64,000 nt of DNA from Candidatus Woesebacteria bacterium. GTDB lineage: Bacteria > Patescibacteriota > Microgenomatia > UBA8517. A program made the position numbers and the translations under genes. This document shows, one piece after another, positions 5,191 to 44,744 of this stretch. The notes beneath the pieces are model-generated. The model worked only from the letters and a program-made list of their open reading frames with translations, was not told the origin of the DNA and did not search any database. The stretch lies in NCBI GenBank assembly GCA_013374855.1, contig CP055308.1:337833-401832 (forward strand), written 5' to 3'. How positions within the stretch are numbered: the stretch's first letter is position 1; every line of letters begins with the position of its first letter.

Positions 5191-5197
5191 TTTTTAA

Positions 5198-22664: not shown

Positions 22665-25600
22665 ATGAAAAAAATAGTTTTATTTTTGTTCTCTTTTGTT
22701 TTTCTTTTTTCTGCTAGTAGTGTTTTGGCAAGGAGTGTTTCTGTGTTTTCTCTGGAGCCAAGAATAGGTTCCTCTGCTGTTAGACAACCTGTTTCTTTCA
22801 AGGCTCGATACTTTTTTGATGGTGGAGTAAACAATATTTCCGAGCTTGGCATATGGTTTGATGTTACACAACCACTTGTGGGAAGGGTTAATTCTTCTGC
22901 CCATGGTCTTGTAAGAAATCAATCTGGTTCTTGGAGGTATTATGGTACAAGGTATAACGGTGGTGGTGACACCTGTGGGGGGAAATACCTCCAGCCTCGC
23001 CAGTGTTATCGTAATTATGTATGGGACATTGGTGGTTTTGATATTGGTTCCGGCAGTTGGATATATTTTAATCACGACGAGGAAATGCGTGATACGAAGG
23101 ACAAAACTCTAAATACGATAGGTGCCTATAGAGTTAAGTCAGTCAAGGTTATCGATGGTAATACAATGGAGGTCGAGTGGGAGTTTTATTTTGATTCCTT
23201 CTTTAAGGAAAGAGAGCTTGACGCCTATCTTGCTATTAGAACCGGTGACAACATCTCTTTGTCAACAGTCAATCCTCCCTTTTGGCATGCTGCTGGTAGA
23301 TGGAGGGTGAATAAAGGCGGAGGACAAATTTTGTTTGGTGATGACTTCGAATCAGGGTCCTTTTCTGGATGGAGAACTACCAAAAATCCTGGAGGGCAAG
23401 GAGAAGGCAGGGTCACCGCCTTCACGGATATGCATTATCTGGGTAGGCGTTCAGCTTTGTTGGATAATATTGCTTTTGAGAAAGATCTTGGTAACAATGT
23501 TCAAGGCAAACTATCACTTTGGTTTTATGACGATGGAGCATCTAACAATCCGTTTTACCTTGCGATTTCTACTCTTCCTGTTGAAAGGTGGAACGATAGG
23601 GGTGTTCATACGATAGCGGTTGGTTTTAATCCTACCTACTCCCCGCAAAATTATATTTATCGTGCAAGGATAGACAATTTGAATGGGGAGAATCTAGGTG
23701 CAGATTTGGAGTACCAGATGTTTGATACAAAAATAAAAAGAACTGTAGGTTGGCATAAGGTTGTTTTCTGGATTACCGATGTTGGTGCATGGGCGGAGAT
23801 AGATGATTTTGAGAGGGAAATTTTTCCTCATAACTTAATAACTCTTAAGGCGGAGGCAGACAGGACGAAAAACAAGAGAAGATCTCCTTGGGATTGGGAG
23901 ATGACAAGCTTTAGGTATATTAGGCTTCAAGCAGATAGGGGTAAACTGGTTGTAGATAATGTGGTTTTGGAGACTTTGCCACCGATGCCCGATATAAATA
24001 CCTCAGAAGGACTCCAAGACTATATGCTCCACGGGCTTAATAATTACATTGATGCGTATGAGCAGGTTCCTATGTGGGAGAATTTGGACAAGTGGTATAG
24101 CAATGATAATACTAAAGGTACGAGGTATGGTTGGTGGTTTGTCTCAATAAATAATTTAGCCCACGCCCTGTACTTTCGCTGCCGTTTTCTCGATTTACCC
24201 TTTGATTGCAACCAAGCAAATAGAATAGTGTCTTTTTGGTTTGAACATTACGACCGATGGAATCCCACAGCTGAGACACATGCATTTTTATCCTCTCTTC
24301 ACCTTGCCTCTTTTGCTAATAGTGGTTGGGAACATATGACACCTCATCTTCGAGCAGATCTTTACAAGAAAGCTATGTTTTCTTTTTACAATCCTATGCC
24401 GTCAAGCTATGACATTAATAAATCGCATCATATTGGTGACTCTACGGGGGAAGATTATCCATGGGGGCCAACAGCAGGACTTGCTCTTGCCTCTATCCTT
24501 TTTTCAGATCATCCCCACTCTCAGAGATGGCTGGATTTTAGTCGTATGGCGGCTATGAAAACTTTTTCTTACAACAAGGATGAACCCTGTAGTGTCTGTC
24601 CAGGAGGGAAGGTGGGTACGAAGACAATCTATGCCCCCGGTGAACAATTGAAAGATTGCGATCAAGATCCTGATAGGAGGAGTCGTTATGAATCCCAGGA
24701 TTGCCTTTGCCGAGGAGATAGAGCGATATTGCCGGCCAACCATGACCCGGGATACTATTTTGATAACCACAGTCTTCATCCCAATCCTGATTATGCTCTT
24801 GGTTCCCTTTCTGGTCTTACAGCTACTATTCGGTATTTTAAGTTACTTGGCAAAACTCCTCCCATTGAATACTACCACAATATCAAGGAAATTTGGGAGG
24901 TTCATAGGAAGTTTATTGACTTTAGGAGTAATCTTTATAACGGTAAGGAGATATATGCAATAAGAGAAAAAACTTTTTGTGACGGAGGTGTAAATGGTTC
25001 TGAGGATGTCTATTGGCCAGATAGAGGGCCAGATGTTAACCAAATTGGGAATCCTTTTAGAAATGGTTTTAGTGACTGGGGCAAATACCCTGGACTTGGC
25101 TTGAATTTTATAGAGAGCGTTGAATATGCTTTGGGTGCAGACGCTATTAACTACCAAGGCTTTAACCTTAAGGAAAGGCTTTCCAAAAATGCTTATTATA
25201 AGTATTTTGACACGATGGATTATCCTGTTAGCCTGCCTGCTAATTTTTCCGAAACTGGTCTTAATTGTCATTATGCTGCTCCTTTCTGCAATTACTCGCA
25301 ATACGAAGGAGGGATAGGTTATGACGTATTCAGGTTTAATAGGAATGACACGACCATACACCTTTTCAATACTTTCCGCTTTCATTCCTCCCTTCCCCTC
25401 AAAGTCTGTGAAGATAATATATTCAATGAAAAGGTCTGGACTTCTGGTGGTGGCATAAATTGGAATTGTGACAGCAATGTTAAAAAGGTTGGTAATACTT
25501 CTATTGTTATAAATTCTGATAACCCTGTTGATGCAGAGCTTTATTCTCCTTTGATTGAAGTTACGCCAAACAAGGAGTACTCTGTTTCATATTGGGTTAA

Positions 25601-26063
25601 AACACAAAATCTTCAGCCATCTGATTCAAAGGTATATGGAAGGATTATAGTAGCTCAGTATAAAGATGGAGTAAGGGAAATAGATGATGTATCAACTGAC
25701 AAAAGGATAGATACTGGATTTTCTCTAGGAGAGAATGTTTCAGGAACAACTGACTGGATTAAGAAAAGCTATACTTTCAAGACAACAGGTCAAACAAAAT
25801 ACATAAGGTTAAGAGCACCACTTGGTCTTCAAGGAAAAGCAAAAGGCAAAGTGTATTTTGATGACATAGTTGTAAAAGCCAAAGATACAACATCAGACTT
25901 AAACAACGATGGCAAAGTAGATATTTTTGACTACAACATACTAATCTCAAACTTTGGAAAAACAGGCTCTCCTGGATGGATACCAGCAGATATTAACAAA
26001 GATGGCAAAGTGGATATCTTTGACTATAATATTCTTGTAGGGGAGTTTGGAATTTTAGGGTAG
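22665..26063 (+). CDS. Large secreted modular enzyme-like protein: signal peptide, LamG/ConA-like jellyroll, alpha/alpha-toroid (possibly heparinase II/III or alginate-lyase-like) domain, CBM4_9-like module and type-I dockerin.
   Basis: The 1132-aa product starts with the signal peptide MKKIVLFLFSFVFLFSASSVLA|RS. It has an FGDDFESGSFSGWRTT jellyroll signature and a CBM4_9-like segment NIFNEKVWTSGGG...KVYFDDIVV. Its C-terminus carries the duplicated dockerin DLNNDGKVDIFDYNILISNFG...ADINKDGKVDIFDYNILVGEFG. The catalytic family is not resolved. Confidence 0.75.
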   Translation: MKKIVLFLFSFVFLFSASSVLARSVSVFSLEPRIGSSAVRQPVSFKARYFFDGGVNNISELGIWFDVTQPLVGRVNSSAHGLVRNQSGSWRYYGTRYNGGGDTCGGKYLQPRQCYRNYVWDIGGFDIGSGSWIYFNHDEEMRDTKDKTLNTIGAYRVKSVKVIDGNTMEVEWEFYFDSFFKERELDAYLAIRTGDNISLSTVNPPFWHAAGRWRVNKGGGQILFGDDFESGSFSGWRTTKNPGGQGEGRVTAFTDMHYLGRRSALLDNIAFEKDLGNNVQGKLSLWFYDDGASNNPFYLAISTLPVERWNDRGVHTIAVGFNPTYSPQNYIYRARIDNLNGENLGADLEYQMFDTKIKRTVGWHKVVFWITDVGAWAEIDDFEREIFPHNLITLKAEADRTKNKRRSPWDWEMTSFRYIRLQADRGKLVVDNVVLETLPPMPDINTSEGLQDYMLHGLNNYIDAYEQVPMWENLDKWYSNDNTKGTRYGWWFVSINNLAHALYFRCRFLDLPFDCNQANRIVSFWFEHYDRWNPTAETHAFLSSLHLASFANSGWEHMTPHLRADLYKKAMFSFYNPMPSSYDINKSHHIGDSTGEDYPWGPTAGLALASILFSDHPHSQRWLDFSRMAAMKTFSYNKDEPCSVCPGGKVGTKTIYAPGEQLKDCDQDPDRRSRYESQDCLCRGDRAILPANHDPGYYFDNHSLHPNPDYALGSLSGLTATIRYFKLLGKTPPIEYYHNIKEIWEVHRKFIDFRSNLYNGKEIYAIREKTFCDGGVNGSEDVYWPDRGPDVNQIGNPFRNGFSDWGKYPGLGLNFIESVEYALGADAINYQGFNLKERLSKNAYYKYFDTMDYPVSLPANFSETGLNCHYAAPFCNYSQYEGGIGYDVFRFNRNDTTIHLFNTFRFHSSLPLKVCEDNIFNEKVWTSGGGINWNCDSNVKKVGNTSIVINSDNPVDAELYSPLIEVTPNKEYSVSYWVKTQNLQPSDSKVYGRIIVAQYKDGVREIDDVSTDKRIDTGFSLGENVSGTTDWIKKSYTFKTTGQTKYIRLRAPLGLQGKAKGKVYFDDIVVKAKDTTSDLNNDGKVDIFDYNILISNFGKTGSPGWIPADINKDGKVDIFDYNILVGEFGILG
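25393..26052 (+). repeat. Copy 1 of a 660-bp perfect direct repeat (the partner copy is at 46898..47557), encoding the CBM4_9-like plus dockerin cassette.
   Basis: A line-by-line nucleotide comparison over the whole length is identical. The copies are offset by 21505 bp and both are in-frame C-terminal gene segments. Confidence 0.85.
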
Positions 26064-26181: not shown

Positions 26182-27237
26182 ATGTCATTTAAAACAAAAA
26201 GAAAGTTAAGTTTTGATATCCTTGGCAAGAATAAGATTGTTTCTCTTCTTTCTGTAATGCTTCTTGTTCTTGGTCTTGGAGCAGGTATTTTTGCTTTAAA
26301 CAGAAGTCTTGAGATGAGAGTTGGTGCAGGAGGGGGTTCTTTAAAACTTCTTTCTTCTTCAAATATCCCCACACAATCAGGCAGCGAATTTACCGTAGAT
26401 GTTTATTTGGATACAGGGGGTATGCAGGTAACAGCTGCTGACATTAAGGTAAGGTACGACAAAAACTTACTGGAAGGAAAAAGTATAACAAACACTGGTT
26501 TTCTGCCTACAAACCTTGTCAATGGAAATGTAGACAACAACAATGGAATAGCCTCTATAGTAATCGGATCAGAACCAACAAATCCCAAATCAGGTAATGC
26601 TGTTATTGCAAAGATGGTATTAAGACTAAAATCCAATCTTCCCCAATCAGGAACAACTATTTCTCTGGATAGATCAAGCGCTGTTGCTGCTATTGGAATG
26701 GAAGGGAATATAATTTCAACTTACACTGACCTTCTGGTAGCCCCCCCAACCCCTACGCAGGTACCTGCACCCACTTCGTCACCTCGTCCTACTAGCCTAC
26801 CTACCTCAACACCTGTTACACCGGGCCCCACTTCTATTCCATTTAATCCGGTCATAGAGGAAACTGTTCTTGATAAGTTCTTCCTGACTCTTAAAGGATC
26901 TGGTCTTGCTAGTCAAAATGGTGAGAGTGTGACGGTCAAGGTGAGGTATTTGGTTCAAGAGATGCCTAACAAGAAGCTCCTGGATCTTATTAGACCAAAA
27001 ACTTCCTGGAAAGAGCACACAGGTACTTACCCTGTTGTCTCTGAGGCTGGAAAGCAGGTTATTCGCATACCGGCAGATAACGTTCCTGGAATAACATTAA
27101 GAAGTGGTTGGGTAAATGTTTACATAAATGGAAAACAAGCAAAAATTATTTGGGGAGGTGGTGGTTGGGAAAACCCTCCAATGCCACAACCAAAGCCTCC
27201 AAAGAGGCCTTGGTGGAAATTGAGATGGTGGAACTAG
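26182..27237 (+). CDS. Membrane-anchored cohesin-like domain protein with a variant N-module TM-LNRSLEMRVGAGGG, a PT-rich linker and a C-terminal domain.
   Basis: The 351-aa product contains SGSEFTVDVYLDTGGMQVTAADIKVRYDKNLLEG...GNAVIAKMVLRLKS, matching the cohesin type-I pattern (YD..LE, GxxxIAxxxxK). The domain lies at about 26359..26737. The C-terminus ends PPMPQPKPPKRPWWKLRWWN. Confidence 0.6.
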   Translation: MSFKTKRKLSFDILGKNKIVSLLSVMLLVLGLGAGIFALNRSLEMRVGAGGGSLKLLSSSNIPTQSGSEFTVDVYLDTGGMQVTAADIKVRYDKNLLEGKSITNTGFLPTNLVNGNVDNNNGIASIVIGSEPTNPKSGNAVIAKMVLRLKSNLPQSGTTISLDRSSAVAAIGMEGNIISTYTDLLVAPPTPTQVPAPTSSPRPTSLPTSTPVTPGPTSIPFNPVIEETVLDKFFLTLKGSGLASQNGESVTVKVRYLVQEMPNKKLLDLIRPKTSWKEHTGTYPVVSEAGKQVIRIPADNVPGITLRSGWVNVYINGKQAKIIWGGGGWENPPMPQPKPPKRPWWKLRWWN

Positions 27238-27360: not shown

Positions 27361-28425
27361 ATGATATCAAAAGTAGCTCGGACAGAGTTTTCTCAAGCAA
27401 TTAAGGCCTTGTGTATGGAAAAAGGGCTCGATGCCGCAGTGGTTCTGGAGGCGATAAGACACGCTGTTATTGCCGCATATAGGCGCGATGCCAAAGAAAG
27501 AGGCGAAGAGATAGGTGAAGATGTGGAGATTGATGCAAGAATAGATCCTTCAAACGGCGAGACAAAAGTCTTCATAGATGGCAAGGATGTTACCCCGCCG
27601 GGTTTTGGTAGAATTGCCGCTCAGACCGCGAAACAGGTGATTCACCAGAAGATACGAGAGGCAGAAAAAGATATGGTTATGAATGAGTTTAGAAGTAAAG
27701 TTGGAGGCTTGGTGTCTGGGATAATTTTGAGGTTTGAGGGTAAAGATGCAAGAGTAGATTTAGGTAAGACAGAAGGCATTTTGCCAAGTGGAGAGAGAAT
27801 AGCTACTGAAAGGTTAAATCTGGGAGAAAGGTTTACCTTTCTTCTGAAAGAGATACGAGATGGATCAAGAGGCGAGGAGATAATACTTTCTCGAGCCGAC
27901 CCCAAGTTTGTCTATGCTCTGTTTGCTCGCGAAGTACCAGAAATCTCTTCAGGTAGTGTGGAAATAAAATCAATAGTGCGCGAGCCTGGCTTGAGGACAA
28001 AGATGCTTGTCTATTCCAACCAACATGGTGTTGATCCAGTTGGCTCTTGTGTAGGACAAAAGGGAACAAGAGTTCAATCGGTTATGAGTGAGCTTGGTGG
28101 GGAGAGAGTCGATGTTATTCCTTATAGTGATGACGTAGCGGAAGTTATCAAAAACGCTCTTGCTCCTGCTGAAGGCCTGACTGTTAGATTGGATGAGGAT
28201 AGTAAGACAGCGTATATAAAGGCGTCTGAGGACCAACTCCCTCTTGCTATAGGAAGAGATGGTCAGAATGCTAGACTCGTAGCCAAGCTTACGGGTTGGA
28301 ACATAAAGGTTGAGAAGGGGGAGGAATCTGAAGAGGGCGAAAATGCTTCGGGCGATGGTTCCCGCGAAGACAAAGAATCTGAAGAAGAGAAAAGGGTGGA
28401 AAGTGAAGACGAAGGAAAAAAATAG
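27361..28425 (+). CDS. nusA: Transcription termination/antitermination factor NusA.
   Basis: The product has an N-terminal domain, an S1 domain and two KH domains (PGLRTKMLVYSNQHGVDPVGSCVGQKGTRVQSV...IGRDGQNARLVAKLTGWNI) plus an acidic tail. Confidence 0.9.
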   Translation: MISKVARTEFSQAIKALCMEKGLDAAVVLEAIRHAVIAAYRRDAKERGEEIGEDVEIDARIDPSNGETKVFIDGKDVTPPGFGRIAAQTAKQVIHQKIREAEKDMVMNEFRSKVGGLVSGIILRFEGKDARVDLGKTEGILPSGERIATERLNLGERFTFLLKEIRDGSRGEEIILSRADPKFVYALFAREVPEISSGSVEIKSIVREPGLRTKMLVYSNQHGVDPVGSCVGQKGTRVQSVMSELGGERVDVIPYSDDVAEVIKNALAPAEGLTVRLDEDSKTAYIKASEDQLPLAIGRDGQNARLVAKLTGWNIKVEKGEESEEGENASGDGSREDKESEEEKRVESEDEGKK

Positions 28426-28459: not shown

Positions 28460-29893
28460 ATGAAGACACAAGAAGAAACATTAAAGAGACCACCGGTGGT
28501 TGCCGTTTTGGGCCATGTTGATCACGGAAAAACCTCCCTTCTTGATGCGATAAGAAAGACTAATATCCAAGCAAAAGAAGTGGGGGGAATTACCCAGAGA
28601 ATAGGGGCCTCTGTTGTTAAGACTGATTCAGGAAGAGATGTTGTCTTTATAGACACTCCGGGACACGCTGCGTTTTCTAAGATGCGCTCATGTGGGGTCT
28701 CAGCTTCGGATATTGCCATTTTGGTTGTTGCAGCAGACGACGGTGTAATGCCTCAGACAAAAGAGTCAATTGAATATATAAGGGAAACGAATACTCCTTT
28801 CATAGTTGCTATTACAAAAGTGGATTTACCGTCAGCAAAAGTCGATGTTGTCAAAATGCAACTGTCGAAAGAAGAAATTTTGTTGGAGGGCGAAGGAGGA
28901 GATACTCCCTTTATTCTTGTTTCTTCGAAGACAGGGCAAGGAATAAAAGAGCTGCTTGATGTGATTTTGCTCCTTTGGGATTTGGACGATCGAGGTTTGG
29001 TAAACAATGGTGGGCTTAAAGCAGTAGTTGTAGAGACCAGTCTTACTAAGGCAGGGCCGTCTGTTTCGGTAGTAGTAAAAGAAGGAGTCTTGAGACTGAA
29101 ACAAGAGATTTTTGCAGGGACTGAGAAAGCGAGGGTGAGGGGTTTGATTGATGCTTATGGCAAGCCAGTGAGCGAAGTAAGAGCAGGATACCCAGCCCTG
29201 ATCTTGGGATTTGAGAAGCTCCCCCCTGTAGGTTGCTTGGTTTGTGATAAGATTTTGAGCTCTTCTGTTGTGCAGAATAGTTTGGAAGACAGATATCACC
29301 TTTCTTCTCAGAAGAAGAGCAAGCTAAACGCCATTTTTAAGGCGGAATCTCAAGGGGCGCTTGAGGCAGTTTTGTCAAGTATCCCAGAAGGCGTCTCGGT
29401 AATTGATTTTGGTGTTGGAGAGGTTACAAAGAATGACATCTTGCTTGCAAAGAGCACAGATTCTTTTATTTTTACATTTGGTGTTAAGTTGAGAAGCGAA
29501 GTGGTCAAACTTTCTGAAGCGGAAGGAGTGAAAATTGAGAATTTTGAGATTATTTATAGACTGGTTGAGAGAATCGAGGAAATCTTGTCTAAGAATGAGG
29601 AGAAAATTTTGGGCAAGGCTCAGATTTTGGCAGAGTTTCCTTTTGAAGACAAAAGGGTAGCAGGATGTAAGGTCTTGTTTGGGGAAATTAGCAAAAATGA
29701 TAGGCTCTTGTTAAAGCGAGGAGAAAATGTCTTGGGCGAAGTCAGGGTGCTGTCATTAAAGAAACAGAAAAGTGAGGTTGATAAGGTAACCCAGGGTGAG
29801 GAGTTTGGGATTCTTTTTGTGCCACAGCTTGATTTTAAGGTGCAAGATGTGTTAGTATTGGTCGCCCCTGCCAGTAATTTAGATGGAAAATGA
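28460..29893 (+). CDS. infB: Translation initiation factor IF-2 (a short form with the G domain and C-terminal domains only).
   Basis: The product reads [20 protein letters not shown]...FIDTPGHAAFSKMR...ADDGVMPQTKESI. It is 477 aa. Confidence 0.9.
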   Translation: MKTQEETLKRPPVVAVLGHVDHGKTSLLDAIRKTNIQAKEVGGITQRIGASVVKTDSGRDVVFIDTPGHAAFSKMRSCGVSASDIAILVVAADDGVMPQTKESIEYIRETNTPFIVAITKVDLPSAKVDVVKMQLSKEEILLEGEGGDTPFILVSSKTGQGIKELLDVILLLWDLDDRGLVNNGGLKAVVVETSLTKAGPSVSVVVKEGVLRLKQEIFAGTEKARVRGLIDAYGKPVSEVRAGYPALILGFEKLPPVGCLVCDKILSSSVVQNSLEDRYHLSSQKKSKLNAIFKAESQGALEAVLSSIPEGVSVIDFGVGEVTKNDILLAKSTDSFIFTFGVKLRSEVVKLSEAEGVKIENFEIIYRLVERIEEILSKNEEKILGKAQILAEFPFEDKRVAGCKVLFGEISKNDRLLLKRGENVLGEVRVLSLKKQKSEVDKVTQGEEFGILFVPQLDFKVQDVLVLVAPASNLDGK

Positions 29894-30797
29894 CCTTAGT
29901 GCTTACTTTGATAGAGCAACCTCTGTATTTATAGTTCTTCCTAAAAAACCATATTTTGATCAGGTTGCTGCCGGACTTTCTCTTTATCTTTCATTGTTGG
30001 GGAAAAAAGAGGTTTCTGTTATTTGTCCAAGCCCAATGCTTGTTGAGTTTAATCGTCTGGTGGGGGTGGACAAAGTCGTACAGCATCCTGTAGAAAGAAA
30101 CTTGGTAATCCGTTTTGCTGGGTATAACGCGATGGATATAGAAAAGGTTAATTCCGAGGTAAAAGATGAGGAGCTTTACCTTGTGGTTGTTCCTCAACCA
30201 AACGTTAAGCCTCCTACCAAAGAGCAAGTAAGCCTTTCATACAGTGGGGTGTCTTGTGATTTAATTGTTTTGGTGGGCGGGGCTGATGAATCGCACTTCC
30301 CTATTTTGGCAGATCCAGAGGTGTTGGGGATTCAAAAGATTCATGTGGGCCTTCGTGACATTCGCCAAACTAAAGATAACAACATCCTCTCTTATGTTAG
30401 GAGTTCGTCTTCTGTTTCAGAGTTGGTGGCGGATATTATTCGTGAGCTTGGGCTTGAAGTTGATGTGGACACGGCGTCAAATCTAATAGCAGGGATTGAG
30501 GTTGGTAGTAATCATTATACATCTGAGGGAGTGACCGCTAACACGTTTCAGACGATAGCTGATCTTTTAAGGCTCGGTGGTAGGAGAACGAATTTGTTGT
30601 TTAGATCGACATCTTCTGTGGGGCAGTCTGGCGAGACTCTTCTTGACAAGACGGGCGGTGATAAGTTTTTACGAGGAAATCTTACCCCCGAGAGTGATAT
30701 ACAAGACAAAGGTAAGAGAGAGGCCCCGGAGGCAGATGAAAATCCGCCATCAGACTGGCTCGCCCCCAAGATATTTAAAGGAACATCGGTTAGCTAA
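29883..30797 (+). CDS. NrnA-like DHH/DHHA1-fold protein with degenerate catalytic motifs (likely a pseudoenzyme).
   Basis: The product is colinear with NrnA but the motifs are replaced: DxD becomes KKPYFDQ, the motif-II Asp becomes LVIRFAGYN, DHH becomes KIHVGLRD, GDTG becomes GIEVGSNH, and no GGGH is present. It sits in the canonical nusA-infB-(rbfA)-nrnA-(truB)-rpsO-pnp position. Confidence 0.55.
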   Translation: MENDLSAYFDRATSVFIVLPKKPYFDQVAAGLSLYLSLLGKKEVSVICPSPMLVEFNRLVGVDKVVQHPVERNLVIRFAGYNAMDIEKVNSEVKDEELYLVVVPQPNVKPPTKEQVSLSYSGVSCDLIVLVGGADESHFPILADPEVLGIQKIHVGLRDIRQTKDNNILSYVRSSSSVSELVADIIRELGLEVDVDTASNLIAGIEVGSNHYTSEGVTANTFQTIADLLRLGGRRTNLLFRSTSSVGQSGETLLDKTGGDKFLRGNLTPESDIQDKGKREAPEADENPPSDWLAPKIFKGTSVS

Positions 30798-30894: not shown

Positions 30895-31203
30895 ATGGCG
30901 TTAACACCAGAGGAAAAAAAGAAAGTAATAGAAAGGTTTGCAAGAGAAAAAGGAGACACAGGTTCTCCTGAGGTGCAAATAGCTCTTCTTTCTTCTCAGA
31001 TAGAAAAACTAGTTAGTCACCTCAAAAGTCATCCTAAGGATGTTCATTCAAGGCGCGGCCTTTTGTCTATGATTGCCAAAAGAAGAAGGCTTCTTGTTTA
31101 TCTTAAAAGAAAGGATGAAGCGAGGTATCTCTCCTTGCTTGATAAACTAAAGGCAGAAAAAAAGGATTTAATTGATGAAAACTCTAAAAAGAATTCGAAG
31201 TGA
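30895..31203 (+). CDS. rpsO: 30S ribosomal protein S15.
   Basis: The product reads [51 protein letters not shown]. Confidence 0.9.
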
Positions 31204-33400
31204 GACAGAATTTGGGGGTAAGAAGTTAATTCTTACTTCGGGTGATTTGGCATTTCAGTCGTCAGGTGCCGTAATGGCTCAGTATGGTGAGACTGTAGTG
31301 CTTGCTGCTGTGGTTTTTTCTCCTCTTAGGGAAAAGCTTGGCTATTTTCCACTTTCAGTTGAGTATCAGGAAAGACTTTATGCTGGAGGCAAAATTAAAG
31401 GCAGTCGTTGGGTTAAAAGAGAAGGAAGGCCATCAGATGATGAGATCTTAAGCGGCCGTCTTATAGACAGAAGCATTAGACCACTTTTCCCCAAGGAATT
31501 TTCAGATTACGAGGTTCAGGTTACAGTGACGGTATTGTCCGTCGATCTTGAAAATAGCCCTGATATTGTTGCTGCCATTGCCGCATCTGCTGCTATTGAA
31601 GTTTCGCCAATTCCATGGGCAGGACCCGTGTCAGTTATTCGTCTGGGGCTTAAAGATGGGAAATTTTTGATTAACCCCACAACGTCAGAGCTTGAGTTGT
31701 CAAGTCTTGATTTGGTTGTTTCTACGACGGAAAACTCAGTTGTTATGATAGAAGCTGGGGCAAAGGAAGTTCCTGAAGAAAAGGTGGTCGAAGGTGTAGA
31801 GTTTGCAGTTAAGGAAGGCAAAAAACTTATTGAGTTTATTTCTGATTTTGCTAAAAAAGCAAGAAGCAAAGAAAAAATTAATCTCAGAGTTCTAGATGAC
31901 AAGGCATTTTTAGATAGAGTTGATAAGATAGCTGGCAGGGATATAGAAGAAATGGTAGTCAAGCTTGCTAGGAAAGAGATTAGTTATACCGAGGTTGATC
32001 AATATAAGAATTCCCTTGTTGAAAAGTTTGGGGAGGAAGAAAGACAACACCTGCACGAAGCTTTTGAGAAATTGATGTCCTTGAAATTTAGAAAAATGGT
32101 TTTATCAGGCAAAAGGCCTGATGGGAGGAGAAATGATGAGATAAGGCCACTTTCTGTTGAAGTTTCTGTCTTGCCACGCACTCATGGTTCTGCAATTTTT
32201 CGGCGGGGGCATACACAGGTCTTGTCAATAGCCACACTTGGTGCTCCGTCCTTGGAGCAATTAATCGAGACGGCCGAAGGCGAGGAGACAAAGCGTTATA
32301 TGCACCACTATGTAATGCCTCCTTATTCTTCGGGAGAAACAGGTAGAATTGGTGTTCCCTCAAGAAGAGAGATAGGACACGGTGCTTTGGCAGAAAGAGC
32401 ACTTTTGCCGGTTATCCCTCCTGAAGAGGATTTTCCTTACACGATAAGGGTTGTTTCTGAAGTTTTGTCGTCAAATGGTTCAACATCAATGGCTTCCACT
32501 TGCGGATCTACTCTTGCTCTAATGGATGCGGGTGTTCCTATTAAACGGCCAGTTTCCGGTATTGCTATGGGACTTGTGGTTGAAGATGAGAAAAATTTTG
32601 TTGTTTTGACAGACATTGCGGGAATTGAAGATGGAGCAGGAGATATGGATTTTAAGGTTGCAGGAACAGAAAAAGGTATAACCGCATTGCAGCTTGATGT
32701 TAAGACTTTAAAGCTTGTTCCATCTATTTTGTCCTCTGCTTTGGCTCAGGCAAAAAGGGCTCGTGGACAAATTCTTGAAAAAATGCTTTCTGTGATAGGG
32801 TCACCCCGGAAGGAAATTTCAATTCACGCACCCAAGATTAGGATGATTAAAATTCCACAAGATAAAATAGGCGATCTTATAGGTCCTGGAGGAAGAATGA
32901 TAAGAAATCTTATTGCCGAAACTGGGGCTCAAATTGAAGTAGAGGAGGATGGAACGGTGAATATTAGTAGTACCGATCCTGAGGCTGTAGAGGAAGCTAT
33001 CTTGAAGGTTGAACAATTAACTAAGGAAGCAAAGGTGGGTGAGATTTATGAAGGAACTGTTAAAAGAATAGAGCCATACGGTGCTTTTGTTGAGATTTGG
33101 CCTGGGAAAGATGGTATGGTTCATATTTCTGAGATGAGTAATGATTATGTTAATGACCCTCATGATGTTTTGAAATTGGAAGACAAGATCAAGGTAAGAG
33201 TTAAGGGGATAGATGAGATGGGTAGAATTAGCCTTTCCATGAAACTAGACGAGAAAGGTGAATCGCAAAGAAATGATTTTCCAAGAAAAGGAAACTGGCG
33301 TGAAAGTAGAAGCAAGACTAGAATAAAGAGAAGTTCTGGTGGGCCTCATTTTCCTACAAGCAGGCTCATTGAGGAATTTGAGAAGAAAAAGGGGTATTAA
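31172..33400 (+). CDS. pnp: Polynucleotide phosphorylase (PNPase).
   Basis: The product has two RNase PH domains, a KH domain and an S1 domain ([30 protein letters not shown]). Its start overlaps the rpsO 3' end. Confidence 0.95.
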
Positions 33401-33445: not shown

Positions 33446-34552
33446 ATGGCTGCTGTTTCCACAGATGATATTAGTGTTTATTCGCATAAAAATTTGGACG
33501 AGCCTCTTCCTGTTAGAGATGTAGAGCTTTTGAGACTTAAGTCTTTGGTTGATTCTTCCGATTGCCCTGATGAATTGAAAGAAAGAATAAACACAAGGTT
33601 GGGCCAACTTGATAGGTTGGTGAATTCTCCTTCATTTCTTGATGAGTATGACAGAATTTCCCGCTACATCGATTGGGTTATCAAAATCCCTTGGAACAAG
33701 ACCACTGAGGATATTTTAGATTTGGAAAGAGCCAAGAGAGTTTTAGATAGTCATCACTATGGTCTTGAGGAAATAAAAAATAGGATTCTTGAGTATATAT
33801 CGGTGATGAAATTAAAATCAGAAAAAGGCGAAAAAGATGAAGTTCTTAAAGCGCCCACCCTTTTTTTTGTAGGTTTAGTGGGTACAGGAAAAACGACCAT
33901 TGCTCCATCTATTGCCGAGGCTTTAGGAAGAAAGTTTGCTCGTATTCCTTTTGGTGGAATGGGAGACCCCCTTGACCTTCGTGGGCAATCGAGACTTCAT
34001 CTGGAATCAGAACCCGGTAAAATAATAAAAGCTTTAATTTCTGTTCAAAGCAAAAATCCGGTGATTCTACTTGATGAGATAGATCGTGTGACAGAACAGG
34101 GGAGAAGCTCTATTATGGGTGTTTTAGTTGAGCTTTTGGATCCAAAACAGAATTATGCCTTTGTTGACCATTATGTTGATTATCCGGTTGATCTTTCTCA
34201 GGTTCTGTTTATCGCAACTGCAAACAACACACATAATATTGCTACCGCAGTGATGGACAGGCTTGAGCCTATAAGCATGCCATCTTATTCGGATTCAGAG
34301 AAGATCGCTATTGCTGTTAATTATGTATTGCCTGAAAAGTTAAGATCCGCAGGTATACCAGAGGGGGTAATAAATGTGGCAGATGATGTTTGGCCAATTG
34401 TCGTTCGCCCGCTTGGGTATGACGCTGGTATTAGAACTTTGGAAAGAACAATAGATGGCTTAGTGCGTAAAGTAGCTAGACTTCTGGTTGAAGGAAAAAT
34501 TACCTCTATTAGAATAACAAAGGAAAATGCAAAGGAGTTTCTACCTCAATAA
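33446..34552 (+). CDS. Lon-like AAA+ ATPase module with no N-terminal LAN domain and no C-terminal Ser-Lys protease domain.
   Basis: The 368-aa product reads LDSHHYGLEEIKNRILEYISV...FFVGLVGTGKTTIAPSIAEALGRKFARIPFGGMGDPLDLRGQSR...PVILLDEIDRV...LDPKQNYAFVDHYVDYPVDLSQVLFIATANN...MDRLEP, colinear with the LonA ATPase core. It ends about 30 aa after the alpha-helical lid. Confidence 0.7.
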   Translation: MAAVSTDDISVYSHKNLDEPLPVRDVELLRLKSLVDSSDCPDELKERINTRLGQLDRLVNSPSFLDEYDRISRYIDWVIKIPWNKTTEDILDLERAKRVLDSHHYGLEEIKNRILEYISVMKLKSEKGEKDEVLKAPTLFFVGLVGTGKTTIAPSIAEALGRKFARIPFGGMGDPLDLRGQSRLHLESEPGKIIKALISVQSKNPVILLDEIDRVTEQGRSSIMGVLVELLDPKQNYAFVDHYVDYPVDLSQVLFIATANNTHNIATAVMDRLEPISMPSYSDSEKIAIAVNYVLPEKLRSAGIPEGVINVADDVWPIVVRPLGYDAGIRTLERTIDGLVRKVARLLVEGKITSIRITKENAKEFLPQ

Positions 34553-39908: not shown

Positions 39909-41720
39909 ATGATAACAACTGACGAAATTAGAGAAAAATACTTGAACTTTTTTAAAGAGAAGTCTCATTATGAGATACCAGCTTCTCCTCTTGTGCTTGA
40001 GGGAGATCCTACTACTCTTTTTACTTCTGCTGGAATGCAACCTTTGATACCTTACCTTAAAGGGGAACCTCATCCTAAAGGAAGGAGACTTTGCAATTCT
40101 CAGCCTTCCATCAGGCTTCAGGATATTGATGAGGTGGGTGACAATCGACATACCACCTTTTTTGAAATGCTTGGCAATTGGAGTTTGGGTGATTACTTTA
40201 AGAAGGAACAATTGGCTTGGTTTTGGGAATTTTTAACAGATATTCTTTCTCTCCCAAAGGATAAGCTTTATGTTTCTATCTTTGAAGGATTGAAAGATGA
40301 AAGGGGAAAAGTTGTTGTTCCCAAAGACGAGGAGTCTTACAAAGTCTGGCTTTCTTTGGGGGTGCCAGAAGAGAGAATATTTTTCTATGGATCAGAAAAA
40401 AATTGGTGGAGCAGATCGGGCGAGCCTATCTCTATGCCTGAAGGTGAAATAGGAGGGCCGGATTCTGAAGTATTCTATGATTTTGGTAAGCCGAGGCATG
40501 AAGGGTGTCATCCAAATTGCGATTGTGGCAGGTTTTTGGAAATAGGAAACTCTGTTTTTATGGAGTATGAGAAAAAAAATGGCAAGCTTGTTTTTTTGCC
40601 TGAGAAAAATGTGGATTTTGGTGGAGGGTTGGAGAGGCTTTCGATGGCAGCGAATAACATAGAAGATATTTTCTTGACCGATCCCTATTTAGGTGTAGTG
40701 CGTGCATTGGAGGGAATATCGGGCATAAAATATGATGACAATAATAGAAATAGGAGTTTTAGGGTAATTGCAGATCATCTGCGAGCATCAGTTAATATAT
40801 TATCTGAAGGTATCTATCCTTCAAACAAACTTCATGGATATGTTTTGAGGAGGCTTTTGAGAAGGTCGTTTTTGCATTTTTATTTCCTTTGTGGTTTTTC
40901 GGACTGGAAGTTGGACGAGATTGTCTTAACTTTGGAAAGTAATGAGAAGATAAAGAAGAATATTGAATTTGTTCAGGAATTGATTAAGGAGGAGGAATTG
41001 AAATTCAGAAGAATCTTGGATAGGGGGATAAAAATTATAGAAAAGGCAGTAAGGGATGGTGTAAAGATAGATGGCAAATTTGCTTTTGATCTTTATCAAA
41101 ATGAGGGTTTTCCTTGGGAGCTAACTTTGGAAATATCTCAAGAAAAGGGTTTGAATTTGGTTAGCGATGTTAAAGATCAATTCAAAAAGGAATTTGAGAA
41201 GCATCAAGAAATTTCAAGAAAGGCTTCTGTCGGTGTTTTTAAAGGAGGTTTGGCAGATCATTCATATGAGGTTGTAAAATTACACACTGCTACCCATCTT
41301 TTACACTCGGCATTAAGAAAAGTTTTGGGAGACTCTGTTTCGCAGAAGGGGTCGAATATTACTTCAGAAAGACTGCGATTTGATTTTTCTTTTCCTAGAA
41401 AACTTAGCGATGAAGAAATAAGGAAAGTTGAAACCTTGGTAAATAAAGTAATAACAGATAAGCTTCCTGTTTCTTGGGAAGAGAAGAAATTGGAAGATGC
41501 TATAGAGGAGGGAGCTCTTCATTTTTTTGCAGAAAAGTATGGAGATGTAGTTAAGGTTTACACAGTGGGTGATCCAAAGGGTGGGTATTTTTCTAAGGAG
41601 GTTTGTGGGGGGCCTCATGTAAAAAACACTTCAGAGTTGGGGTATGTTAGAATAATTAAACAAGAGAAGTTGGGGCAGACAGCTGTTCGTATTTATGCTG
41701 TAAATGAAGAAAAAAAGTAG
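39909..41720 (+). CDS. alaS: Alanine--tRNA ligase, a compact form (catalytic, tRNA-recognition and editing HxxxH domains; no C-Ala domain).
   Basis: The product reads DPTTLFTSAGMQPLIPYL...RHTTFFEMLGNWSLGDYFK and HTATHLLHSALRKVLG. It is 603 aa. Confidence 0.9.
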   Translation: MITTDEIREKYLNFFKEKSHYEIPASPLVLEGDPTTLFTSAGMQPLIPYLKGEPHPKGRRLCNSQPSIRLQDIDEVGDNRHTTFFEMLGNWSLGDYFKKEQLAWFWEFLTDILSLPKDKLYVSIFEGLKDERGKVVVPKDEESYKVWLSLGVPEERIFFYGSEKNWWSRSGEPISMPEGEIGGPDSEVFYDFGKPRHEGCHPNCDCGRFLEIGNSVFMEYEKKNGKLVFLPEKNVDFGGGLERLSMAANNIEDIFLTDPYLGVVRALEGISGIKYDDNNRNRSFRVIADHLRASVNILSEGIYPSNKLHGYVLRRLLRRSFLHFYFLCGFSDWKLDEIVLTLESNEKIKKNIEFVQELIKEEELKFRRILDRGIKIIEKAVRDGVKIDGKFAFDLYQNEGFPWELTLEISQEKGLNLVSDVKDQFKKEFEKHQEISRKASVGVFKGGLADHSYEVVKLHTATHLLHSALRKVLGDSVSQKGSNITSERLRFDFSFPRKLSDEEIRKVETLVNKVITDKLPVSWEEKKLEDAIEEGALHFFAEKYGDVVKVYTVGDPKGGYFSKEVCGGPHVKNTSELGYVRIIKQEKLGQTAVRIYAVNEEKK

Positions 41721-43991
41721 ATGGATCTAAAAAGATTTGTGTCTCCCAAAAAGGAAGTTGAAGAGAAGTACTGGTCTGTCGTTATAGAGCCGGATTGGGT
41801 TCAAAGTGGAATCTGGATTGCTCAAGACGGCAAAGTGGAAGTGCTTTCTTTTAGCAAACCTTTGCCATGGAGCGGCGAGGAAAATCTGGTAGATGTAGTT
41901 GATTCTTCCCTTTCGGTTTCTGTTGGTAATTTGGCAGAAGATGATTTGGAAATATCGAAAACTGTTTTTGGGCTTTCGTCGTCTTGGGTAACTCCTGATG
42001 GAGGAATCAAACAAGAATATCAAGACCTAATTAAGAATGTTTGTCAGGAGCTGTCTCTAAAGCCTGTGGGCTTTGTGGTTTTAAGTGAAGCTTTAGCTTT
42101 TTATTTTAAGTCAGAAGAGAAAGTTCCACTTAATGCTATTATTGTTGGTTTGGGAGAGAAAAATGTGTCTGTTTCTCTTTTTATTGAAGGGGTGAACAAG
42201 GGTGAGGTAATAGTCTCTAGAAGTCTCTCGGTAACTGACGATATTGCTGAAGGCCTTTCTCGGTTCTTGCAAGTTTCCTCTTTTCCTCCAAGAATTCTCC
42301 TTTTTAATGGTCGTGAGGGAGAGTTAGAAGATGTGTTGCAAGAGATAACATCAGTTGATTGGTCTGGGTTTGAGGGAATTAGTTTTTTGCATCTTCCCAA
42401 GGTAGAGGTAATTGATCTTGAAGAGAAAATAAAAGCGGTTTCGCTTGCTGGGGGAGTTGAGCTTTTGGGGGCAACTTCTGTGTTAATAAAAGAAGCAGGA
42501 AAAGAAGTTTCTTTTGATGTTGAGAAGGAAATAGGTTTGGCGGAAAGCAAGGAAACTGATGATTCTGGTTATCAGGATGAGAAGTCTTTGCAGGGGGATA
42601 ATTTTTCTTCTGTTGAAGGTGATGTTGGGTTTGTGGTTGATAAAGACATAAAAGAGATTGGAGAGAAGGTGATAGGGAAACAAATTTCTCGGGATGGTTT
42701 TAAGGAAAATTTTAAAGAAATTGATGGTGGTTTTGAAGAAGGTTTTCAGCCAGTTAGAACTGAATTGCCAGGAGGAGATATGTTTGAAAAAAATCTTGGT
42801 AAGAGAGGATTTATATTTCGGAATATTTTTAAAAAACAACTTTCATCTATTTCACTTTTTTCTTATAAAACACCAATCTTGGTTGGTATTGTTACTTTCA
42901 TACTGGTTTTTCTGGGTTTTTTTGTGGCGTGGTGGTTTTTACCGAAAGCTTCGGTTATAGTCTATCTTTCGCCTAAAAAGATAGAAAGTAAACAAGAGGT
43001 TGTTTTTGATGCAACAGCCAAGGATGTTGATTTGAGGGCAAAAACTATTCCTTCCAATTTAATCAAAAGAGAACAATCGGGAGAAAAGACAATACCAACC
43101 TCAGGTACAAAGCTAACGGGCGAGAAAGCAAAGGGTAAGATTGTGATATATCGAACCGGTTCTCAGTTGTCTTTAGATAAGGGAACGAAAGTCCAGAATT
43201 CATCAGGGCTTACCTTTGTTTTGGATGAAGATGTTACAGTTGCAAGCGGAAGCGCATCTTCACCAGCAAAAACAGAAGCTCAAGTAACGGCTGCAGATAT
43301 TGGGTCGGAATATAATCTAGCTTCCGGTGAATCCTTTACCATTGGCAATTATCCCTCGAGTGAGATTGAAGCCAAAAATGAAGAGTCTTTTAGTGGTGGT
43401 TCAAGTAGAGAAATTAGCTCTGTATCCTCTGCCGATTATGATAATGTGCTTTCTGAATTAAAGAAGGAGCTGAGAGACAAGGCAATTTCTGCTATTAAGA
43501 GTTCGCTTTCTTCAGATGATTATTTGATAGAAGAAACTTTAATTGAGAATGAAAAGCAGAAAGTTTATGATCATAAGATAGGTGACGAAGCAACTAGCCT
43601 AAAACTTAGCTTAACAATGGAGTTTTCTGCTTTTTCTTTCAAGAAGTATGATATGTTTGAATTTTCAAAGGAAATCTTGAAGGATCAAATTACTTCTGGA
43701 TATGTGTTAAGGGAAGGACAGTTGTCTTTAGGTTTTGATGTCAAAGAGATTAAAAATGATAAGGCTTTTATCTTGGCTTCATTTTCTGCAAATTTGTTAC
43801 CCGCTATTGACGCTGATCAAATAAAGAAAAAAATTGTGGGAAGAAAAATTAAGTTTGTTGAAGATTATTTAATAAAAGAGTCGGGTTACGAAAAGGTTAA
43901 GATTGATATTGTTCCTGGTATTTTTAACAGATTTGGGTTTCTACCCCATGTCTCAAATAATATAGAAGTTGGATTTGAATCCTCGCGTTAG
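41721..43991 (+). CDS. Fusion protein: an N-terminal cytoplasmic FtsA/PilM-like actin-fold domain, a central TM, and a ~350-aa extracytoplasmic domain of unknown function.
   Basis: The N-terminus (YWSVVIEPDWVQSGIWIAQDGKVEVLSFSKPLPW...KPVGFVVLSEALAFYF...AIIVGLGEKNVSVSLFIEGV) follows the SHS2/actin-like pattern of PilM/FtsA. The TM is TPILVGIVTFILVFLGFFVAWWFL, and a Ser/Lys-rich ectodomain follows. Confidence 0.55.
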   Translation: MDLKRFVSPKKEVEEKYWSVVIEPDWVQSGIWIAQDGKVEVLSFSKPLPWSGEENLVDVVDSSLSVSVGNLAEDDLEISKTVFGLSSSWVTPDGGIKQEYQDLIKNVCQELSLKPVGFVVLSEALAFYFKSEEKVPLNAIIVGLGEKNVSVSLFIEGVNKGEVIVSRSLSVTDDIAEGLSRFLQVSSFPPRILLFNGREGELEDVLQEITSVDWSGFEGISFLHLPKVEVIDLEEKIKAVSLAGGVELLGATSVLIKEAGKEVSFDVEKEIGLAESKETDDSGYQDEKSLQGDNFSSVEGDVGFVVDKDIKEIGEKVIGKQISRDGFKENFKEIDGGFEEGFQPVRTELPGGDMFEKNLGKRGFIFRNIFKKQLSSISLFSYKTPILVGIVTFILVFLGFFVAWWFLPKASVIVYLSPKKIESKQEVVFDATAKDVDLRAKTIPSNLIKREQSGEKTIPTSGTKLTGEKAKGKIVIYRTGSQLSLDKGTKVQNSSGLTFVLDEDVTVASGSASSPAKTEAQVTAADIGSEYNLASGESFTIGNYPSSEIEAKNEESFSGGSSREISSVSSADYDNVLSELKKELRDKAISAIKSSLSSDDYLIEETLIENEKQKVYDHKIGDEATSLKLSLTMEFSAFSFKKYDMFEFSKEILKDQITSGYVLREGQLSLGFDVKEIKNDKAFILASFSANLLPAIDADQIKKKIVGRKIKFVEDYLIKESGYEKVKIDIVPGIFNRFGFLPHVSNNIEVGFESSR

Positions 43992-44033: not shown

Positions 44034-44744
44034 GTGATTGATATGAACTTACCCAAGAAAACTTTATTAAGACTTGTTTTTTCTTTTTTGCTTGGTCTAG
44101 TTGGAGTTTTGATATTGGGTTTCACTCTATATCCTATAATTTCTTATGAATTAAATAATAGGAGCAGTCTATCTGGTTTATTATCTCCTGTGGTAGAGGA
44201 GGATGTGGATATCTTTTATGAAAAGGATTACACAAAGGCAAGTAACTGGTTTGTAGGTGGAGCGAAGATAGAGGATTTTTCTTTGCCTAAAGTAGCTTTT
44301 TATAATCTATCTATCCCGAAGCTTAGGATTGAGGATGCAGTTGTTGCAATAGGAGGAGAGGATCTTAATGAGCACCTAATCCAATATCCGGGTACTGCTT
44401 TGCCTGGGCAAGTTGGGAATGCGGTTATATTTGGTCACTCAATTTTACCCCGTTTTTATGATCCTAAAAATTACATTTCTATCTTCTCGCTCTTACCTAC
44501 TCTTGAAAAGGGAGATTCTATTTTTGTTGTTTATGATGGTATCGAATATTTGTATAAGGTTGAGGATATGTTTGAGGTCACCCCAAACGATATTCAAGTC
44601 TTGGAGCAAAATCGTTCTGACTCTTATCTTACGCTTGTAACCTGCACTCCACCTGGAGATCCTCGAAAGCCAAAAAGGCTGATTGTAAGAGCAAAGATAG
44701 TTTCCAATCAAGCGAATAAGCAGACAGAGAATCTTAACATATGA
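44034..44744 (+). CDS. Sortase (transpeptidase) with an N-terminal membrane anchor.
   Basis: The product has the catalytic His (NAVIFGHSI), the TLxTC Cys motif (YLTLVTCTPPG) and a downstream conserved Arg (PKRLIVRA), after an N-terminal TM. Confidence 0.85.
   Translation: MIDMNLPKKTLLRLVFSFLLGLVGVLILGFTLYPIISYELNNRSSLSGLLSPVVEEDVDIFYEKDYTKASNWFVGGAKIEDFSLPKVAFYNLSIPKLRIEDAVVAIGGEDLNEHLIQYPGTALPGQVGNAVIFGHSILPRFYDPKNYISIFSLLPTLEKGDSIFVVYDGIEYLYKVEDMFEVTPNDIQVLEQNRSDSYLTLVTCTPPGDPRKPKRLIVRAKIVSNQANKQTENLNI

Follow-up and report, generated by a model that had tools for sequence, protein, structure and literature searches.

What does a protein with the fold of a nanoRNase, and with almost none of its catalytic residues, do directly behind infB, in the slot that rbfA takes in most bacteria? 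The question is raised by an uninterrupted open reading frame (ORF) of 304 amino acids in a stretch of 64,000 nucleotides from Candidatus Woesebacteria bacterium (Microgenomatia; assembly GCA_013374855.1, contig CP055308.1, positions 337,833 to 401,832 of the forward strand), which is referred to here at its full length as the window. The ORF sits between infB and rpsO, with nusA upstream and pnp downstream, and a database search found an identical protein encoded on an 802-kb public contig. A preliminary description of this DNA had read the product as a catalytically dead homolog of the nanoRNase NrnA, either a pseudoenzyme retained for a structural or regulatory role or a relic of genome reduction. 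The evidence presented below points to a Microgenomatia-type ortholog of the infB-linked nanoRNase clade NrnA' that would have been turned from an enzyme into a non-catalytic protein.

The homology to NrnA is invisible to single-sequence tools and becomes solid with family profiles. As a single sequence, the window protein matches no Pfam family at E ≤ 1 and hence lies below the gathering threshold of DHH (PF01368). Its NCBIfam match is PRK14538, a GdpP-like DHH protein fused to L9 (E = 7e-4), and its best phmmer match in the PDB is a Deinococcus RecJ-like/NrnA structure (E = 0.066). Two family profiles were used, A1 with 29 sequences and A2 with 111 sequences, the latter including distant representatives. 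Against the PDB, A1 retrieved DHH-family structures only (best E = 8.7e-5), and A2 retrieved nothing but DHH enzymes down to about 1e-3. The A2 matches comprise TM1595 from Thermotoga maritima (E = 3.8e-20), the NrnA' of M. smegmatis (MSMEG_2630, 4ls9; E = 5e-18), S. aureus NrnA (E = 2e-17), Rv2837c (E = 1e-15), B. fragilis Nrn (E = 1e-14), B. subtilis NrnA (E = 3e-10) and a cyclic-di-AMP phosphodiesterase (9n0l; E = 2e-8). Moreover, 50 of the 111 family members match Pfam DHH (PF01368) themselves, the best with E = 1.1e-14. AlphaFold2 models residues 1-238 with confidence, at a predicted local distance difference test score (pLDDT) mostly above 85, and each of the top 47 Foldseek matches in the PDB is either a DHH/DHHA1 phosphoesterase or a family II pyrophosphatase, with a probability of 1.0. 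TM1595 leads these matches (E = 7e-11, root-mean-square deviation 2.6 Å over 236 columns), and the NrnA' clade structures MSMEG_2630 and Rv2837c are recovered at 1.6e-9 and 5e-9, respectively. The window protein is a genuine DHH-fold homolog, and on this point the A2 profile and Foldseek bear out the preliminary description.

DHH enzymes possess four motifs with one conserved Asp each, plus the DHH triad, and these residues together bind two metal ions. The motifs were mapped onto the window protein from the A1 and A2 profile alignments to PDB chains (TM1595, 4py9 and S. aureus NrnA; Table 1). Motif I, H..P-D-x-D in the enzymes, corresponds to P20..P23-Y24-F25-D26, with P20 at the upstream His. 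D26, the second Asp of the D-x-D, is kept in 109 of the 111 members, and position 24 is mostly Ser, Thr, Asn or Tyr. At the Asp position of motif II stands G132, in a column that holds Gly in 95 members, Asp in 7 and Asn in 5. The DHH triad of motif III has become G156-L157-R158; column 156 is Asp in 42 members, Gly in 39, Ser in 15 and Asn in 9, and both His columns are mostly non-His. Motif IV (GxxTDTGxF) reads G204-I-E-V-G208-S-N-H-Y212, and its Asp column is occupied by Ala in 53 members and by Gly in 26. Overall, a single one of the eight canonical residues (D26) is kept and seven are replaced, the Asp of motifs II, III and IV all by Gly, and none of motifs I, II, III and IV has the form that it takes in active DHH phosphoesterases.

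These alignments confirm much of the preliminary description and correct its details. Every catalytic motif was said to be substituted; catalytic residues are indeed lost from all four, including the motif II Asp, but the second Asp of the D-x-D survives. The readings of DHH as HVG and of GDTG as GSNH were right in that the triad and the motif IV Asp are gone, but the registers were off by two residues and by one, respectively, as the triad aligns with G156-L157-R158 instead of H154-V155-G156 and the motif IV segment with V207-G208-S209-N210. Alignment with the DHH motifs, the check that the description had itself named, places no intact catalytic Asp or DHH residue at these positions save D26.

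The consequences of such replacements can be gauged from mutants of active enzymes. The D80N D156N variant of B. subtilis NrnA has no detectable RNase cleavage activity (PMC9757072), and the D80N D154N mutant of TM1595 carries the label inactive in its PDB entry titles. Both Asp positions of these inactivating double mutants are Gly in the window protein. In addition, substrate binding by NrnA depends on metals (PMC9757072) and on the DHHA1 domain, in which the substrate-binding elements GGGH and RxRxR are located (PMC5593865). As far as the sequence can tell, the canonical metal site of the window protein is destroyed, and the missing ligands, together with the D80N D156N precedent, lead to the prediction that it does not perform Mn2+-dependent hydrolysis of dinucleotides, nanoRNA or pAp.

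The architecture of the protein has changed as well. It had been described as colinear with NrnA, which does not hold for the full-length enzyme, given an insert of about 55 residues and the lack of DHHA1. Alignments to every NrnA structure split into two blocks around residues 70-124. Profile positions 7-74 align with residues 6-73 of TM1595, in a region where the AlphaFold2 pLDDT is above 93 from residue 11 and 76-83 for residues 1-10, and profile positions 130-248 align with TM1595 residues 78-192, with pLDDT mostly above 90. Opposite the insert there are 4 residues in TM1595 (73 to 78) and about 24 in MSMEG_2630 (79 to 103). The insert is predicted to form four long beta strands (71-78, 86-94, 97-104 and 116-123; pLDDT above 90), and the region is found in 291 of 291 family sequences. 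Mean-field direct coupling analysis (DCA) on 291 sequences recovers contacts of the core as well as the hairpin contacts K88-V103, S91-Y99 and V93-L98 of the insert. On the C-terminal side, the A2 alignments to the NrnA chains, which are 320-343 amino acids long, end by about chain residue 215, and none of the 111 members matches Pfam DHHA1. The absence of the C-terminal GGGH, noted in the preliminary description, is therefore real but understated, because the entire DHHA1 domain is gone. In its place, residues 239-285 form a disordered linker, which across the family is hypervariable, 10-127 amino acids long (median 47) and rich in Pro, Gln, Glu and Ser.

Beyond the linker lies a short peptide that is far from variable. 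The near-invariant family motif, PPxDW(L/F)xPK(I/V)(Y/F)KG(T/S)xx, spans 15 residues at the C-terminus; P289, W292, P295, K296 and K299 are invariant in A1. Among 255 full-length family proteins, 248 carry the motif itself and most of the remaining seven a degenerate version of it. Copies on other proteins would have pointed to a shared docking hub, but 960 kb of the window and related loci, translated in six frames, contained one copy at each locus and none elsewhere, and a search of PDB sequences with the peptide gave no match. The pLDDT of the tail rises from below 50 with a shallow alignment to 71-80 with a deep one, and this rise hints, at the level of the model, at docking of the tail on the folded domain. 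Neither a sortase signal nor a secretion signal explains the tail, as there is no hydrophobic segment or signal peptide. The loss of DHHA1, the insert and the tethered tail motif, which say most about function, had escaped the preliminary description. In a subclade of the family (loci L015, L018, L021, L022, L030, L032-L034, L045, L047, L048, L053 and L055), 13-16 extra residues follow the motif (e.g. ...KGSSVPQPIQSDSFSENKG), so that it is not at the extreme C-terminus in these proteins.

The family is both large and well maintained. A database word-index search returned 796 relatives, of which the best 120 are full-length, 40-69% identical and without any Pfam domain, and the named ones among them are Woesebacteria or Patescibacteria. 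A profile search of 1.84 billion cluster representatives yielded 3631 clusters at E < 1e-3, 1257 at E < 1e-10 and 519 at E < 1e-30, with intact ORFs in more than 500 clusters at the last threshold. The source databases annotate the proteins as hypothetical or, rarely, as nanoRNase by COG transfer. Genomic context was compared across 88 loci of Woesebacteria, Microgenomates and related Patescibacteria, 80 from GTDB species genomes found by a pattern search and 8 from further contigs. The gene is intact in all 88, with divergence down to about 30% identity, and the ratio of nonsynonymous to synonymous substitution rates (dN/dS) is 0.058-0.076 for the closest pairs with unsaturated dS (Nei-Gojobori method). 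The family is under strong purifying selection. Loss of essential catalytic residues under maintained purifying selection is the operational definition of a pseudoenzyme, and the proposal that such a protein was retained for a structural or regulatory role finds support in the seven of eight residues and the DHHA1 domain that were lost, the intact genes, the low dN/dS and the features that were gained.

Within the family, active sites are eroded to different degrees. Orthologs in related genomes, whose state the preliminary description had wished to see compared, are degenerate too, some distant ones at the same locus keeping as many as five of the eight canonical residues (H..x-D, the motif II Asp and D-x-H). 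These distant orthologs match Pfam DHH, yet they lack DHHA1 and possess the tail. This pattern suggests that loss of DHHA1 and gain of the tail came first and that the residual metal site decayed later. Since the partly eroded orthologs already have the new architecture, catalysis appears to have been dispensable after the change, and the later decay is what would be expected if catalysis were no longer the selected function.

The genomic position of the family is equally constant. The order nusA-infB-family gene-rpsO-pnp is found in all 80 GTDB species genomes and in the 8 further contigs, with infB immediately upstream in 88 of 88 loci. After pnp there usually follow a gene for a Lon-like AAA+ protein, a UDG gene and the gene for RNase J. 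In the window, the ATG of the ORF lies at 29883 and the TGA of infB at 29891-29893, an arrangement that suggests translational coupling. Across the loci, the family gene starts at a median of 5 nucleotides from the end of infB, with overlap in 20 of 70 loci and at most 30 nucleotides in 53 of 70, whereas the distance from the family stop to the rpsO start has a median of 114 nucleotides and reaches 2 kb. The tight linkage is therefore to infB. A frameshifted infB fusion or a mis-called start was ruled out, as the N-terminus MENxF is conserved and 73 of 74 loci have an ATG start.

The preliminary description had called this the canonical position of NrnA, which finds support in the literature: the genes neighbouring those of the nanoRNase clade NrnA' are infB, rbfA and nusA, and MSMEG_2630 shares a transcript with infB and rbfA (PMC4081065). 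Of this neighbourhood, nusA and infB are adjacent in all 88 loci, and rbfA is absent from both the locus and the window. Inspection of the locus located neither rbfA nor truB between infB and rpsO, and among the suitably sized ORFs of the window none matched the Pfam family of either, in line with the earlier statement that both are missing from the locus. According to a survey covering over 30,000 bacterial genomes, Microgenomatia, WWE3 and Dojkabacteria have lost rbfA, era and der (PMC12641178); consequently, the absence of rbfA is probably genome-wide rather than local.

We think it reasonably likely that the window protein is a non-enzymatic adaptor or regulator, in which a fold module and a tethered short linear motif bind one or more partners. 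Starting from NrnA', the protein would have kept the N-terminal DHH fold alone and added the beta insert, the disordered linker and the C-terminal peptide. The globular DHH-derived module would then serve as a binding platform, and the tethered peptide as a short linear docking motif that either latches onto its own domain or captures a partner. With a binding module and a docking peptide, the protein would work as an adaptor or regulator instead of a phosphodiesterase. The partner would most probably come from the machinery encoded nearby: in the first place IF2 together with 30S initiation or late 30S maturation, for which the genetic linkage is tightest, and in the second the RNA-decay enzymes PNPase and RNase J, encoded just downstream.

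Several points weigh against this reading. The partners are no more than candidates, and adjacency to infB speaks for co-expression and not for physical interaction. Docking of the tail in cis and docking in trans would both be compatible with the DCA, in which the tail-domain pairs F298-K152, K299-N73 and I297-N3 are no stronger than background. The inactivity itself is read from the sequence, and not everything at the old active site has been lost: D26 is kept, and in the Woesebacteria subgroup (alignment A1) it is accompanied by the invariant H138, H154 and G156 and by the nearly invariant R158 and E206. From these residues one could argue that the protein is still an enzyme, or a nucleotide binder competent for hydrolysis, with a remodelled site built from D26, H138, H154, R158 and E206 and with the insert or the tail replacing DHHA1. 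The near-universal D26 would fit this proposal, as would the DCA couplings of Y24 and Q27 with H138, which indicate that the residues cluster at the old active site. However, H138, H154 and R158 are not conserved family-wide, where column 138 is Asp, Glu, His or Ser, column 154 Asn, His or Ser, and column 158 Arg, Gln, His, Lys or Asn, and this variation weakens the case. Moreover, the Asp of motifs II and IV have been replaced by Gly or Ala, at the two positions where joint substitution by Asn is enough to kill NrnA (PMC9757072), and the RxRxR and GGGH elements belong to a DHHA1 domain (PMC5593865) that the window protein lacks. A surviving catalytic function is for these reasons quite improbable. 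A non-hydrolysing sensor of a dinucleotide, of pAp or of a c-di-AMP breakdown product, relaying the status of RNA turnover to IF2 or the ribosome, is improbable too. Its ancestor was a dinucleotide- and pAp-binding enzyme, and backbone amides of the Gly-rich former catalytic loops, alongside conserved Ser, Thr and Arg, could provide a binding site for phosphate. In contrast, substrate binding by NrnA needs the metals and the DHHA1 domain (PMC9757072, PMC5593865), both of which are missing here, and the ligand-site residues conserved family-wide are limited to D26, D196 and N200.

The slot directly behind infB invites a different explanation, in which the protein is a translation or ribosome-maturation factor specific to the candidate phyla radiation (CPR), derived from a nanoRNase, that moved into the slot of RbfA in Microgenomatia and assumed some of its work, and perhaps some of that of further 30S factors that were lost. 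IF2 and the protein would be translated together, with the tethered WLxPKIYKG peptide of the latter docking on IF2 or in a pocket of the 30S subunit and so gating the entry of 30S subunits into initiation. Such a role is unlikely; if it were true, the translation apparatus would have recruited a DHH pseudoenzyme, the first such case in bacteria. Finally, the loss of the catalytic residues and of a whole domain, in a host lineage whose genome is reduced and has shed many ribosome-biogenesis genes (PMC12641178), might be taken to mark the gene as a functionless, decaying relic or pseudogene, the second option of the preliminary description. This is extremely improbable, as the data on selection and conservation refute it: the ORF remains intact in 88 of 88 loci over the divergence and under the constraint given above, the tight coupling to infB is conserved, and new conserved features have been gained.

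Table 1. Positions in the window of the DHH-derived ORF, its parts and motif sites, and the neighbouring genes.
Feature	Position	Strand	Basis
nusA, first gene of the conserved cluster	27361..28425	+	Pfam NusA_N, KH_5; synteny
infB, short IF2, 477 aa	28460..29893	+	Pfam GTP_EFTU, IF-2
DHH-only, catalytically degenerate NrnA'-like protein	29883..30797	+	intact ORF, 304 aa plus stop; ORF list
Overlap of ORF start with infB end, 11 nt	29883..29893	+	sequence GATGGAAAATGA
DHH core part 1, residues 1-69 (strand 1, motif I region, strand 2)	29883..30089	+	profile; AlphaFold2
Vestigial motif I, Y24-F25-D26 for D-x-D	29952..29960	+	alignments to 4py9 and TM1595
Family-specific insert of about 55 aa, residues 70-124	30090..30254	+	unaligned to NrnA structures; AlphaFold2; DCA
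DHH core part 2, residues 125-238 (regions of motifs II, III and IV)	30255..30596	+	profile; AlphaFold2
Motif II Asp position, G132 (TM1595 D80, B. subtilis NrnA D80)	30276..30278	+	A2 alignment
Motif III DHH position, G156-L157-R158	30348..30356	+	A1 and A2 alignments
Motif IV Asp position, G208 (TM1595 D154, B. subtilis NrnA D156)	30504..30506	+	A1 and A2 alignments
Disordered hypervariable linker in the place of DHHA1, residues 239-285	30597..30737	+	AlphaFold2 pLDDT 30-57
Conserved C-terminal peptide, residues 286-304, ENPPSDWLAPKIFKGTSVS	30738..30794	+	family alignment
rpsO (S15), downstream of the ORF	30895..31203	+	Pfam Ribosomal_S15
pnp (PNPase)	31172..33400	+	Pfam RNase_PH x2, KH, S1

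Some of the neighbouring genes have features of their own. IF2 in the window extends from the G domain to the C-terminal domains only, without the usual N-terminal extension, and its relatives are 461-523 amino acids long. The longest pnp ORF begins with TTG and overlaps the end of rpsO by 32 nucleotides (31172-31203); the true start is probably a later codon, and tblastn matches in relatives begin past rpsO. Directly downstream of pnp, in the window and in nearly all related loci, lies the gene for the Lon-like AAA+ protein (33446-34552, + strand; 368 amino acids), in which an AAA domain and the Lon lid were found and the Lon protease domain was not detected; judging from its domains, it may be another truncated or degenerate enzyme of the cluster. 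Scanned against Rfam, the window yielded no S15 leader and no other RNA element, promoter and terminator scans were at background level only, and neither tRNAs nor Rfam families were detected in the 64 kb.

Farther downstream, the alanyl-tRNA synthetase (39909-41720, + strand) is only 603 amino acids long, with Pfam tRNA-synt_2c and tRNA_SAD and without the C-terminal C-Ala/DHHA1 region. Together with the DHH-like ORF, this means that DHHA1 is missing from both of its usual carriers in the window. Between alaS and a sortase gene (44034-44744) there is a gene for a protein of 756 amino acids (41721-43991, + strand) with a weak Baseplate_J-like domain (E = 6.6e-8), which is odd for a non-phage context. 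A cohesin-domain protein of 351 amino acids with an N-terminal hydrophobic segment (26182-27237, + strand) adjoins a protein of 1132 amino acids that ends in a type I dockerin (22665-26063, + strand), and a second dockerin protein of 807 amino acids (45142-47565, + strand) is encoded near the sortase gene. The domains of these proteins suggest a cohesin-dockerin assembly on the surface of an ultrasmall bacterium. GC skew is positive in every 2-kb bin except 4001-6000, cumulative skew climbs almost steadily over 1-64000, and nearly all genes past 12.7 kb are on the + strand, which fits the leading strand of one replichore.

The family bears on the question of how CPR ribosomes mature and enter initiation. 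CPR/Patescibacteria have about half of the usual set of ribosome-biogenesis factors, and Microgenomatia in particular are reported to be without rbfA, era and der (PMC12641178). A large, strongly conserved, infB-linked and currently unannotated family, derived from an RNA-processing enzyme that lost catalysis and gained a putative docking peptide, is a testable candidate for a lineage-specific replacement or accessory factor. In addition, the partly eroded active sites of the family form a natural series in which the conversion of an enzyme into a scaffold could be followed.

Among known systems, the closest relatives are TM1595 and the NrnA' nanoRNases (MSMEG_2630 and M. tuberculosis Rv2837c/CnpB). 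The latter share the DHH fold with the window protein, as the significant profile and structure matches attest, and their genes likewise lie behind infB within the nusA-infB cluster (PMC4081065). In contrast, the window protein has neither DHHA1 nor GGGH, keeps one of the eight catalytic residues, and possesses the 55-residue beta insert and the linker with the C-terminal peptide; unlike in the NrnA' locus, no rbfA lies between infB and the gene. TM1595, a DHH/DHHA1 pApA phosphodiesterase, is the best profile and structural match, and the DHH cores of the two are colinear. However, TM1595 has all four motifs as well as DHHA1 and is active with Mn2+. Because the window protein departs from active enzymes at every catalytic motif and lacks DHHA1, it is better described as DHH-derived than as NrnA. 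The slot behind infB is a resemblance of another kind, as it belongs to RbfA in most bacteria and holds a DHH-like gene here. RbfA is a small KH-like protein with no relationship to the window protein in sequence or fold, and its functional replacement by the latter would be pure hypothesis.

The inactivated DHH proteins of the RecJ branch offer the closest functional analogy. Cdc45, the archaeal arCOG00428 and arCOG00432 and RecJdbh have likewise lost catalytic residues and been kept at a conserved locus (PMC3307487). For the archaeal proteins, a structural role within replication complexes has been inferred, and in eukaryotes their ortholog is Cdc45 (PMC3307487). These proteins differ from the window protein in that they belong to the RecJ clade and not to the NrnA clade (COG0618), act in DNA replication (the CMG complex) in archaea and eukaryotes, mostly keep DHHA1-like elements and have no tethered C-terminal peptide of the kind found here. 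No paper that connects CPR bacteria with DHH or NrnA proteins turned up in the literature search. Thus, while the inactivation of DHH proteins as such is known from the RecJ branch, the family described here extends this pseudoenzyme route from RecJ/Cdc45 to the bacterial NrnA branch of the superfamily, and what is new is a DHH pseudoenzyme of that branch which lacks DHHA1 and carries a tethered C-terminal motif.

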